Assembly (NCBI RefSeq): GCF_018350175.1
Contig: NC_058368.1
Span: forward strand, 107,572,001 to 107,636,000
From: Felis catus
Lineage: Eukaryota
Reading direction: 5' to 3'
DNA length: 64,000 nucleotides
The translations under genes and the position numbers were made by a program. The notes under the pieces are model-generated. The model saw nothing but the letters and a program-made list of their open reading frames with translations. It was not told where the DNA came from and made no database searches. Shown piece by piece: positions 3,622 through 46,297 of this stretch (position 1 is its first letter; each line of letters begins with the position of its first letter).

Positions 3622-4505
3622 AAAAGTGTGAATATCAAACTCAGGAGTGAAAGGTACATACCTCTTGGCAGATAGGCTAAGACATCAAAGTGTGAGCTGT
3701 ATCTCAGGATCTAAAATATTAAACAAATTTAATAAAATCTATAACAATCCTTCTTACACTCATACTTTGTCTGTCATCCCACTCACACCAAATCACACAC
3801 ATATATTCTAGTAAGGACATGATTCAAAACACTTAATTTTAAATATGGTAACCTTATAAGAAAACCCTTTAGCTTATTCCAATACATAGCAAAACTTAGA
3901 GGAAAACATATGGAAATTTACCAAACTGCTTTAACATACCTGTTTTATGCAAAATAAAGAAAAATGTGCTTTGGTTTTAAAAAGCTTAATGACAGACTGA
4001 TGCTTTATAGGTCACAAGAAGGTAAATACTTCTTTAAGAGTTTTTTGAAGCTGAGAAAAGAGTCTGTTATTTAGAAACTCAAAAGAATATTACAAAGATA
4101 ACTTGCATGTTTACAAAGTAAAATTGAAGACTTTATTTTTTAAGAATGTCATTTTAATTAAGTCAAGATGTTTCAAGTACAACCCATAGTTCTGTACAAG
4201 CTTAGCAAAGGAAAATTAGGAATATAGCAATCAGTAAATGATTAATTGATGGTGAGTAAATAGTTTTATTGGTATCAGAGTTAACATCCTACTAACAATG
4301 TATTGAGAAGTCATGCTTGCTGTTTGCTTTTGTTTCCCACTGATAGTAGGCATAGTAAGTTTCATTCAGTGATTTGTTCAGCATATTTAAGTGCTTATCA
4401 TTTGCCAGACACTGATGTGGGCTGGTGCTGTGAGTAAAGCCCTGTAAACGAGAAAGCCATTATGGCTCACATTTTAGCAAAAGAGAAAGAAAAAATTTTA
4501 TTCCA

Positions 4506-41470: not shown

Positions 41471-42893
41471 GGATGTCTATAATATATATGCTTGGCCTAA
41501 CTTAAATACCACACCCCATTGCTTATTTAACAATAAAAATACAGAAAAAAAGATGCCATTATAACCCAAGAAGGTAGGAATGCCTACCTGGCCTCTTGGG
41601 GATACTTTGAGTTAGATAAATAAATAGGCTTAGGCATGGGGACAAGGGGCAGAGGGTTAAAATAAGTACATCTTCAGACCCAGATATTCGGAACGGTATC
41701 ACATACATATCTGGGAACATCTGAAGCGGGAGAAGGTTAAGAAGAGTTATTAGGAGCCTTCCACATGCCAGGGATGCCAAACGAAAGTAGCGTGGAGGTC
41801 TGGAGGGATGGGGTGTTCTGGGGGAGACATCAGTCATTAGTGACAGTTCCAAGTCTTCACAGAAGCACATGGTAGAAAATGGTGCTGGCGGTTCCCCAAA
41901 ATGGCCTTCTAGCACCATAGTCTAAGACTGGGTCTTTGCATCAGTGGAAAATGGAACCACCCTGAAAAACTACATTTTTCTTATCTTTAGGAAAGCACAT
42001 TTGAGCAGGCCACACATGATTTTAGAATTGCTACTTGCCCCTGGATCTCTCTCATTTATTAACTCCCTATCTGTTAATTAAAAATTATTGCAAGATAGAT
42101 AAAAAGTCTCAGTCTACAAGTAGAGATAAAAGACCTAATATGCAAACTCTAGATTCCTTTAATTTAATATATAAAGTGGGGAAAATTACACTGAAATATA
42201 ATCAGTAGATAAATGAATAAACATAAGTGGTTCTATCAAATTCTGTCTCTATGCATCATGTTAGTGAGAGTGAGGAAAATAAGATGATAGTGGGACTCCA
42301 ATAGAAAAAAGAGGCTGTTACCAAGAAAACAAATATTTCAACTTTATTTTCTTGTCCAAGCTTATTCACAGTTTATTTTCAGTTGAGGCAAAGCAGAAGG
42401 AAGTTGCCACAAGTCACATATTTGGACAACTCTGTTGCCTTTGATTTACTGGTTTAGTGTGTTAACAGTGAATCTCATCATTCAAAGGAAACTTTAATCT
42501 CAAAATTCATTTCCTGAGGTATCACTGTATTCAAAAACAACTCTAACTTCCTCTTCACTTTTCCTACAACTTTTCTTAATATCAAATTTCTTGTCACATT
42601 TTGGAGAGTCACATAAGGCGTCATTTCAAATTCAAAGCATTAAACTGTAATAAAATCAGAGTATCCAGTGTTCTCCATAAATGTAAAAGAATGTATATGG
42701 ACCAAGGGATCATGAAAGAAATGTTCATGGGTTTCAATTCAAGTCTTCTTACTAGAGCAAGAATAAAGAAATACAAAATCATTTGGAGAATTTACATCTT
42801 TACAGTTTTGCTAGGATGCTTTCACAGGCTGGAAAGGAAACATGGGATTTTTTTTTTTTTTTGGATATTGTGACTTCCCTCCTGTAACTAGTT

Positions 42894-42973
42894 TCACGCT
42901 GAGTGACATGTTTTCTGTGGGAATGGTCTTCTGCATTGCTCTGCCACCTTTTCCTGTTCCTCTGAAATCATAT
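42894..42973 (-). pseudogene. Exon 4 (up to first stop) of candidate pseudogene; 3' boundary unknown
   Basis: Strong acceptor CTTATTCTCCCTATTTTTCTAG; phase-1 continuation DMISEEQEKVAEQCRRPFPQKTCHSA*. Confidence 0.6.
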
Positions 42974-43321
42974 CTAGAAAAATAGGGAGAATAAGTTTGT
43001 CCTTGGTAAGAAAAATGCTATGGCTACAAAGCAGTGACATTTAAGCAAGGATCTTTAGTTAATAAATAAAAATGTTCACACTATCTCTGTGTTAAAGGAA
43101 GATGGGCAGTGTTATTTTTATTACATTTAGTATATTTTATTTAACATATTTAGTTTCATTAATATATGTTGTGTTTATTCTTTGTAATTTCTGATTTTTC
43201 TATTTATAACAGGTATCTCTGGTATGATCAGAAAAACAATTATAACATAGAATGTTAAAATAGAGAAAATTGAGAAAAATGTAATTTTTTCAATTTTCAA
43301 ATGTCTGCTTGTTTTTCTTTA

Positions 43322-43325
43322 AAGT

Positions 43326-43364
<39 letters not shown>

Positions 43365-43965
43365 TGATAAAAATATATGTATATATTTTTTCAGGAATAG
43401 AATATAGTGATGCATCACTTACATGTAACACCCATGCTCATCCCAATCAGTGTCCTCCTTAGTGCCCCTCACCCCTTCAGCCCTTCCCCTCCAACCAACA
43501 CTCCGCCAGCAACCCTCAGTTTGTTCTCTGTATGTAAGAGTTTCTCATGGTTGTCTCCCTATTTTCATATTATTTTTGTTTCTCTTCCCTTATGTTCATC
43601 TGTTTTGTATTTTCCACAAATGAGTGAAATCATATGATATTTGTCTTTCTCCGACTGACTTACTTAGTGTAATACAGTCTAGCTCCATCCACGTTGTTGC
43701 AAATGGCAAGATTCCATTCTTTTTCATTGCCGAGTAATATTCCATTGAATATATATACCACATCTTCTTTGTCCATTCATCAGTTGATGGACATTTGGGC
43801 TCCTTCCATAATTTGGCTATTGTCGATAGTGCTCTGTAAACATTGGGGTTCGTGTGCCTCTTTGAATCAGCATTTTTGTATCCTTTGGATAAATACCTAG
43901 TTGTGCAATTGCTACATCATAGAGTGGTTCTATTTTTAATTTTTTTGAGGAACCTCCACACTGTA
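43322..43965 (-). mobile_element. Carnivore L1 3' end in intron 3 of the candidate pseudogene
   Basis: (TTTA)n tail, 3'UTR and ORF2 C-terminal motifs; same type as 3187-3621. Confidence 0.88.
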
Positions 43966-44258
43966 ATTATATGTCTGTAAGAATCTAAACCAGAAACATC
44001 ACTCAAACTAATTCTTAAGGAATAAAGTCACAGTACCTAACTGGCCTTGTTCATGGCTCTTCTTAAGTTGCTTTCTGGAAGTTTCTTAATGGGTTCCAAA
44101 AGAAAAACGAGGAGATTTTAAGGGTCATAAGGTAGTTTTCTAAGTTTTAAATAGCTAACCTTTATTTTCCACCAAACAAATTAAAAATGATACACCTGTG
44201 ACTTGGTAATAAACTAAGGAAACTGTCACTGAACTCCACAGACGGACCTGAATTTGCT

Positions 44259-44383
44259 TATCTATTTATTTATCTATTTATCTATTTATCTATTTATCTA
44301 TTTATTTATCTATTTATCTATTTATTTATCTATTTATTTATCTATTTATTTATCTATCTATCTATCTATTTATTTATTTATTT
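44259..44383. repeat. (TATT/TATC)n microsatellite derived from the U7 retrocopy poly(A) tail
   Basis: Lies between the TSD and the U7 3' end. Confidence 0.9.
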
Positions 44384-44387
44384 ATGG

Positions 44388-44449
44388 AGGGGGTCTTCTG
44401 GTAAAGACCGGAAAACCTGCTAGATAAATTCTAAAAGAGCTGTAACACT
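44388..44449 (-). pseudogene. RNU7: U7 snRNA processed pseudogene (retrocopy)
   Basis: Minus strand AGTGTTACAGCTCTTTTAGAATTTATCTAGCAGGTTTTCCGGTCTTTACCAGAAGACCCCCT matches mammalian U7; A-rich tail 44259-44383; TSD TGAATTTGCT at 44249-44258 and 44450-44459. Confidence 0.93.
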
Positions 44450-44749
44450 TGAATTTGCTCTTTTAAAATGTATGTACATATGTTGCTGTTTCCCAAGGTG
44501 TTGCTGCCAGGCATTAACATTACTAAGAACTATTAAAATGCTGACTTAGCATTCTTTGTAAAACATTTCTTATGTGACCAGAGTGGAACACTCTGAACCA
44601 TACCATAATGTTTAACAAATAGCCAACAGATCATACAGTGTAAATGAAATCGTGACTAGTAATGCCTGAATGTTTTTGAATGTGATAATTTTTGAAAATT
44701 CTAGAGGCCTTCTGTACCTGATATATTCCATATTGTGTTTCTTTTCTGA

Positions 44750-44945
44750 ATTTTTTAATTTTTAAAAAATTTTTATTTTAGAGATAGAGTGCAAGCAGGG
44801 GAGAGGGGACAGAGAGAGAATCTTAAGCAGGCTCCACAGTCAGCTCCACACAGAGTCCAACATGGGGTTAAATACAACAACCACAAGATCTTGACCTGAG
44901 CTCAAATCAAGAGTCACTTAAACAACTGAGCAACCCAGGTGCCCC
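44750..44945 (-). mobile_element. CanSINE in intron 3 of the candidate pseudogene
   Basis: Full-length, diverged. Confidence 0.88.
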
Positions 44946-45295
44946 TGGGTTTCTTTTTCTAAAATTTGCTTTGCTTATCAGTATTTATAATTTAAGATAT
45001 ATTTCACTTTCCATGGGGAAAAAAATCTATAATACTTCCTTTCTAAAAGTTCAATGTACTTATATAAAGTAGAAATTCTTAAAATAGATTAATTTACCTT
45101 ATTTAAGGTTATTGAAATGTCAGAGTTGTGTATAATTTTTCTTAACTAAGACTAATGTGCAGGGTAAATACAAAAAATACACAAGTTAATTTAAGCCTCA
45201 TACTTTAAACTTCAAAGCAGTTGTCAACCAATATTTCACCTTTCAAGTAAACTAAAGTCATATTTTAGCATCCTTATAAAAAAGAAATATCTTAC

Positions 45296-45419
45296 CTTAG
45301 AATTTCTTCACATCCATATCCATAGAATAGTTTTTATAGTGATTTCCAGAATATTGGTGAAACTTTTCTAAATATTTTAAAGATTCTCTTCTAATGGAAA
45401 AAGTTTCAATCCACTTTAT
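45296..45419 (-). pseudogene. Exon 3 of candidate pseudogene (124 nt)
   Basis: Acceptor CTTTATTTTTTAG, donor AAG|GTAAGA; 40 open codons IKWIETF...DVKKF, then TAA at 45299-45297. Confidence 0.72.
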
Positions 45420-45502
45420 CTAAAAAATAAAGTTTATAATTTTAATGTTTTTATTAATGCAAGAAGTTTAAGGGAATAGTTTGTAATTTTTAGGAATCTT
45501 AC

Positions 45503-45620
45503 CTTAAATATATTTAAAGCACAGGAAAAACAACTGGAATTGGTACATTGCATTTTTTCCCTCTTTTTAAACAATCAACCAGTCAGCTTTTTAAAATTAT
45601 TATTATTAATGCAACTAGCT
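45503..45620 (-). pseudogene. Exon 2 of candidate pseudogene (118 nt)
   Basis: Acceptor TTTGATGTTTTAG, donor AAG|GTAAGA; encodes ASCINNNNFKKLTG*LFKKREKMQCTNSSCFSCALNIFK; TGA at 45577-45575. Confidence 0.7.
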
Positions 45621-45702
45621 CTAAAACATCAAACCTTGTTTATGGTTTTGTATAAACTTTAGGCAGGCTTATTAAAGAAAGTTAATAAAATAGTACACTT
45701 AC

Positions 45703-45806
45703 CTTATTTGGTGGTTATTATGAACTGTCCAAAAGAAGTTAAATGTCAATAGGAAAAATAGGTTTTTTTAAGTCTTCCTGAATATCTTGATGACTAAAGA
45801 GTGCAT
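45703..45806 (-). pseudogene. Exon 1 (coding part) of candidate pseudogene, signal-peptide-like
   Basis: ATG at 45806-45804; hydrophobic LFFLLTFNFFW; TAA at codon 13 (45770-45768); donor AAG|GTAAGT. Confidence 0.65.
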
Positions 45807-46297
45807 TTAGCAAAATGGTGGACACTCAAGCAGCCAAATGTCAAACTGCTGATGAGACTTGAATTCCACATTACAATATAAAACCAGATACAAATGGATT
45901 TTTCACTCCTGGGCTGGCCACCTCATTCCTTTGAATCAAAAAAGTGTGCTTGAGAATGGGAAATAGCTTGCTACATGATTAGCACAGAAGATCATTTATT
46001 TGAAATCTAGAGTGTTTCAGGATAGGGCAAAAGGCACAATTTTTGAAGGATGTGTTCACAATGTTAATTTAGATCTGTATTCATTTGTGAAACCATTCAG
46101 AATGTTTCTGGCCATACCTTCTACTAACATTAATCAGTGACTGCCACAGTTGTTTTAATAAAAATTGAGAAAATGGGTGATGAATTCCTGATAATTTGCA
46201 GTTAATTTATTCTGCAACTGCATTTTGTTGGATGAGCGGGGAGTTCCTAAGGGGTTACCTGGTATCTGCCTGACTTTAAAAAAATTAAGCACAAGTA

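Follow-up and report, generated by a model that had tools for sequence, protein, structure and literature searches.

The locus described here lies on the minus strand of a 64,000 nt stretch of the cat genome (the window; C1:107,572,001-107,636,000 in a 2.43-Gb genome), within a gene desert. On one side a CHSY3-type gene ends at C1:107.309 Mb, 308 kb from the locus, and on the other a HINT1-type gene is found at C1:108.036 Mb, 419 kb away, with the locus on its proximal side. The two flanking genes are presumably CHSY3 and HINT1, names taken from their Pfam families and from known synteny. The desert between them hosts three closely spaced exon-like pieces, and the SINEs of the window resemble the CanSINEs of the cat family. 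A region of 464 kb around the locus served as background for the donor counts, the exon scan and the repeat comparison. It contains no CpG island, and its exon candidates are balanced between the strands (86 plus, 85 minus, with no strand excess), so that no long gene trail is visible. The literature found on the CHSY3-HINT1 interval describes no gene there and has nothing on a pseudogene or on the synteny of the pair. A colorectal-cancer association maps between human CHSY3 and HINT1 (PMC4741898); this is the human counterpart of the interval, and no link of the association to the present locus is shown.

A four-exon gene remnant was proposed at this position by the initial annotation. Its parts, and the features that accompany them, are as follows (window coordinates):

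45703..45806, minus strand: exon 1, 104 nt as drawn in the initial annotation; candidate 5' limit; strong donor after 45703
45621..45702, minus strand: intron 1, 82 nt, GT-AG, weak acceptor
45503..45620, minus strand: exon 2, 118 nt, with a TGA at 45577-45575
45503..45582, minus strand: copied part of exon 2, matching 87 nt on another chromosome (L002:1498-1584)
45420..45502, minus strand: intron 2, 83 nt, GT-AG; absent from copy L002
45296..45419, minus strand: exon 3, 124 nt; open for 40 codons up to a TAA (45299-45297) just short of the donor
42974..45295, minus strand: proposed intron 3, 2322 nt; carries a SINE, a U7 snRNA retro-copy and an L1 3' fragment
44721-45004: SINE in proposed intron 3
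43319-43964: L1 3' fragment in proposed intron 3
42894..42973, minus strand: proposed exon 4, 80 nt; strong acceptor; 45% GC; 0-1 stops in every frame
42377, 42348 and 42060: AATAAA downstream of proposed exon 4
41588..41720, minus strand: candidate for a rival or an additional exon, 133 nt; both splice sites strong; one frame without a stop

The AAG/GTAAG donors reported after 45703, 45503 and 45296 (the slash marks the exon-intron boundary), and the TAG acceptors reported at 45621, 45420 and 42974, were all recovered at the same positions on recomputation. The strict donor motif occurs at 16 sites in the 464 kb (both strands), and its single cluster of three is the one at this locus. Strict triple clusters are expected at 5.5e-5 per 64 kb, or about 2 per genome, and looser AG/GTRAG triple clusters at 0.011 per 64 kb, or about 410 per genome. 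The donor cluster is the strongest signal at the locus and stands far above local chance, but it is not proof on its own. With a crude splice matrix, the donors score 6.3-7.9 (7.9 for the one after 45703), and the acceptors of the two short introns score -4.2 and -2.9. The distal acceptor at 42974, described earlier as strong, does score 6.7, but it has rivals at 42828 (7.0), 44397 (5.5) and 43086 (4.1). The exon scan did not pick exon 2 or exon 3. Tandem duplication was considered as a source of the three donors and rejected, with 11 of 12 pairwise unit tests giving p > 0.2 and the remaining one 0.028.

Both ends of the model are less secure. Proposed exon 4 is so short of stops in all frames that its fit to the joined frame says little, and its choice is uncertain given the rival acceptors and the rival exon at 41720-41588. 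The latter, which may be background, is single copy in the genome and has no Pfam match; it lies inside a 120-codon open stretch. At the other end, AG acceptors are present upstream of exon 1 at 45948-45724, along with donors at 46117 and 46258 and other ATGs. The ATG at 45806 has the weak context already conceded when it was proposed, and with other ATGs upstream its choice as start is uncertain. At 45807-45926 (minus strand) the same frame runs up to an ATG at 45926 that has a better context, passing through two more stops.

Proposed intron 3 also holds a full-length U7 snRNA copy at 44389-44450 on the minus strand (Rfam RF00066, 71 bits, model positions 1-62). It is a retro-copy, flanked on both sides by a duplication of about 10 nt and with a tail (44258-44385) that has decayed to TAAA/TAGA repeats.

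When joined, the exons give 426 nt, that is, 141 codons and a TGA, with intron phases of 2, 0 and 1 and stops at codons 13, 50 and 115; codon count and stops agree with the initial annotation. The claim that these stops are few holds against whole-sequence shuffles (3 versus a mean of 10.4) but only moderately under exon-wise shuffles. With the latter, taking the best of three frames, the open frame has a P value of 0.014 when all four exons are joined, 0.022 with exons 1-3 and 0.041 with exons 2 and 3; these values are modest, and the pattern was picked after the fact. No exon is significantly open when taken singly under exon-wise shuffles (P 0.24-0.83), and in each of exons 1, 2 and 3 every frame holds at least one stop. 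Stop 13 is a TAA at 45770-45768, where a run of seven A begins, and stop 115 falls just short of the third donor; these two may be indel or boundary effects, and a later indel may also explain the phase of 1 at exon 3.

The product was suggested to be secreted. Its cysteines are indeed at codons 38, 60, 65, 68, 129 and 138 of the joined product, but none of the features behind the suggestion beats chance when compared with shuffles (hydrophobic stretch, P 0.13; six cysteines, P 0.07; two sequons, P 0.27). Secretion is possible, with no support above chance. Cysteine 60 and the sequon at 62 are further uncertain because they lie where the copy of exon 2 described next favours another frame.

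A genome search using 45250-45850 found one other place, at C18:146.328 Mb (L002), so that the DNA matches genome-wide are two, the locus itself and L002, and the locus is otherwise single copy. L002 differs from exon 2 by six substitutions in 80 sites (7.5%, 95% range 2.8-16%), and the match ends at the last base of exon 2, i.e., at the exon-2 donor. Beyond that point L002 reads ATAAA and then an A-run; ATAAA is also how exon 3 begins (its first five letters), whereas the intron starts with GTAAG. The copy is likely to be a retro-copy of spliced germ-line RNA, judging from where it ends and what follows, with one diagnostic base separating the spliced from the unspliced form. The ATAAA beside the copy can also be read as a target-site duplication, or as one G-to-A change in GTAAG, and even if it is a target-site duplication the copy still ends on the donor. 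The insert immediately follows an L1 poly(A) tail, lies between two A-runs and has AT plus nine A on both sides, which are inseparable from the host poly(A) tail. The host L1 is older than the copy, as its relatives are 81-88% alike. No other pieces of the transcript were found in about 23 kb around L002. An LTR-like insertion at L002:270-1040, seen as a gap in L1 similarity, splits the host L1.

L002 would date germ-line splicing and also offers a second, independent reading of exon 2. Compared with the copy, the window carries an extra 4 nt near 45586, a difference thinly supported by a single base next to an A-run, and lacks 4 nt at a T-run near 45530. In the frame that continues into that of exon 3, L002 reads through 31 codons without a stop (P 0.07 for a given frame); in the frame of the initial annotation it has two stops, including the TGA of codon 50. 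The two 4-nt differences cancel, so that stop 50 would vanish in the L002 state. Two histories are then similarly likely. One takes the L002 state as ancestral: exon 2 once had no stop at all, two indels that cancel each other created stop 50, and cysteine 60 and the sequon at 62 disappear. The other takes the originally proposed frame as ancestral, so that what was copied was a gene that had already died but whose RNA was still spliced. All six substitutions between the window and L002 change an amino acid in the L002 frame, and thus give no sign of selection.

Transcripts were sought in 8 of 24 listed runs, placed on 45200-46150 only, which makes this a weak test; the joint between exons 3 and 4 falls outside that region. 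No splice joints were seen in any of the eight runs, two of which were raw-read runs that gave 0 reads at 1-2% sampled. The other six, available as contigs, gave unspliced pieces running through introns 1 and 2, which may be DNA. In contigs of runs X4 and X5, from two studies, a change at 45407 produces a stop at codon 79 in exon 3. Run X4 also has a 1-nt deletion at 45509 and a further nonsense change at 45919, and two other changes in the contigs are synonymous. These variants fit neutral decay, and the contigs are of low depth. The start of one X4 contig coincides with the exon-3 donor at 45296, which hints weakly at a fork between spliced and unspliced forms.

Protein relatives were looked for widely. 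HMMER searches of 1.84 billion representatives, with a read-through that carries exons 1 and 3 in frame as the query, returned one spurious match (P0002, E 3.6e-4), a repetitive protein aligned across intron-derived read-through. Word-indexed protein searches yielded no relatives from exon 3 (0), from an alignment of three exon-2 readings (0 of 21 candidates) or from a second genomic frame (0 of 13), and all 13 matches of a metagenome pattern scan were chance. Single exons and unspliced read-throughs gave nothing significant in Pfam or PDB; the Pfam families Agd3_C and Cap4_nuclease (E about 0.05) fell far under the cut-off. A mammalian orthologue that is intact, annotated and about 60% identical would be expected to surface, if the libraries contain it. 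The initial annotation had recognised no named gene, and the protein libraries, Pfam and PDB likewise provide no homologue so far, the third genomic frame having been covered in pieces. Within the genome, neither DNA nor protein search found a paralogue, a result that applies to the best candidates, which were scored, so that a very distant paralogue could escape it. Rfam had no match on the exons. A transposon fragment, which had been named as an alternative, is opposed by the lack of repeat similarity over the exons in 464 kb and by their not being multi-copy.

Several weak leads were pursued and dropped. RPS11 (uS17), a local PDB resemblance at the loosest threshold (E about 0.1), failed because the region does not resemble the genome's own RPS11 retro-copy, either as DNA (p 0.11) or as protein (p 0.36); as a control, old true copies of RPS11 score 565-647, against 39 for the region. 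The PDB lead MAD2L2 (Rev7), also with E about 0.1, rests on one seven-residue word, and loci L070 and L071 (E about 0.9) have no DNA similarity. The short-chain helical cytokines IL3, CSF2, KK34 and IL5, which belong to the nearby 5q31 cluster and have four exons and phase-0 introns, share with the locus a four-exon structure, about 140 codons and the same chromosome arm region. A cytokine identity finds no support: the phases are 2, 0 and 1 rather than 0, Pfam and PDB give no sequence match for single exons or unspliced read-throughs, and the locus is outside the cluster, 419 kb proximal to HINT1.

On balance, the locus is rather more probably than otherwise an unprocessed pseudogene of an old, small, orphan protein-coding gene, once spliced in the germ line and now dead. 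The initial reading of an unprocessed gene remnant is supported by the splice structure, the non-repetitive and single-copy exons, the probable retro-copy L002 and the extra nonsense and indel variants. From what the DNA displays directly (splice sites, single copy, position, stops and the diverged exon-2 copy) we infer transcription, splicing, copying by L1 and the timing of death along the following lines. In the germ line, RNA polymerase II would have made a minus-strand transcript, and the major spliceosome would have removed its introns of 82 and 83 nt. An L1 reverse transcriptase may then have primed within the spliced RNA, at the A-rich junction of exons 2 and 3, and inserted a tailless, 5'-truncated copy of 87 nt into the poly(A) tail of the older L1. 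The gene would have been dead or dying at about the time of copying, with neutral decay since. At a neutral rate of 2e-9 per site per year, the 7.5% divergence (2.8-16%) would put the copying, and germ-line splicing with it, at about 7-40 million years ago.

Multi-exon unitary pseudogenes such as TMEM274P and PFN5P are known from comparative annotation (Mudge et al. 2019, PMC6886504). They have in common with the cat locus a multi-exon remnant, canonical splice sites, stops, single copy and lack of a parent, but they have an intact orthologue on record, whereas for the cat locus none was found in the protein libraries. The marks of a unitary pseudogene seen here are an exon-intron structure with canonical sites (the short-intron acceptors being weak), disabling mutations and the failure to find a functional paralogue. 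The human CHSY3-HINT1 interval presumably lies within chr5 128-136 Mb. Supplemental Data S1 of PMC6886504 mentions chr5 107 times, in no case at 128-136 Mb. L1 can produce tailless retropseudogenes by priming internally (Noll et al. 2015, PMC5322556). Like them, L002 is short, truncated at both the 5' and 3' ends, ends at an internal A-rich point and lies between A-runs; it differs in that a target-site duplication would merge with the host tail and its source locus is unannotated.

Among other explanations, a spliced long non-coding RNA, probably testis-expressed and never coding, with a low stop count that is partly luck, is rather unlikely, though the next most probable. The strong donors and L002 indicate splicing and germ-line RNA, not translation, and the want of a protein homologue in the libraries and of any significantly open single exon also speaks for it. 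It has to be set against the phase-linked frame across exons 1-3 (P 0.022) and exons without transposon sequence. Two consecutive introns of about 80 nt are commoner in old coding genes, which also counts against a non-coding origin.

We give little weight to the idea that 'exon 1' is internal and that the locus is what is left of a larger or duplicated multi-exon gene, its parent copy or remaining exons being lost or decayed beyond recognition. While the weak ATG context, the upstream acceptors (45948-45724) and donors (46117, 46258) and the failure of exon 4 to be singled out would suit such a gene, DNA and protein searches of the genome found no paralogue, and the exon candidates are evenly split (86 plus versus 85 minus in 464 kb). 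A chance arrangement in AT-rich intergenic DNA, with L002 a DNA-level or unspliced-RNA insertion that ends at the donor by accident, is improbable: the strict cluster, two near-equal minimal GT-AG introns, the linked frame (P about 0.014) and the end of the copy at a donor must all coincide, even though some 2 strict and 410 loose triple-donor clusters are expected per genome, the acceptors are weak and junction reads are missing. A living, unannotated protein-coding cat gene, with another exon structure that avoids the stops, is very improbable despite donors that are still consensus and the X4 contig that begins at 45296, given at least one stop in every frame of exons 1, 2 and 3 and the nonsense and frameshift variants in other runs.

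Within the preferred reading of a dead protein-coding gene, a bolder version may be offered, though we think it rather unlikely: that what survives in the cat family is the wreck of a vertebrate gene absent from the catalogues, perhaps for a small secreted protein, which is intact but unannotated in some other mammals or reptiles, and that L1 copied its spliced mRNA near the time of death, leaving a stray copy that keeps the last open frame. It is rare for a vertebrate gene to have no relative among about 15 billion catalogued proteins. Should there be an intact orthologue, the coordinates given here point to a gene missed by annotation; should no lineage have kept it intact, the locus is simply a further nameless fossil or non-coding spliced locus.

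Other features were noticed in the vicinity. An exon-like pair is present on the minus strand of the window at 3940-4050 and about 3661-3709, with GTATGT donors 230 nt apart, and would join in phase with one stop; the piece at 3940-4050 has no Pfam match, and the pair may be background. At L004:2575-2888 (68575-68888 in extended window coordinates, minus strand) two more exon candidates are separated by 76 nt; the first has an open frame and a strong donor, and Pfam gave no match here either. At L027:5900-6700, on the plus strand, is what we take from its translation to be a cofilin-like processed pseudogene. Decayed endogenous-retrovirus-like pieces lie at L036:9300-10000 and L037:1200-3900, where gag-, pol- and env-like translations can be made out by eye.
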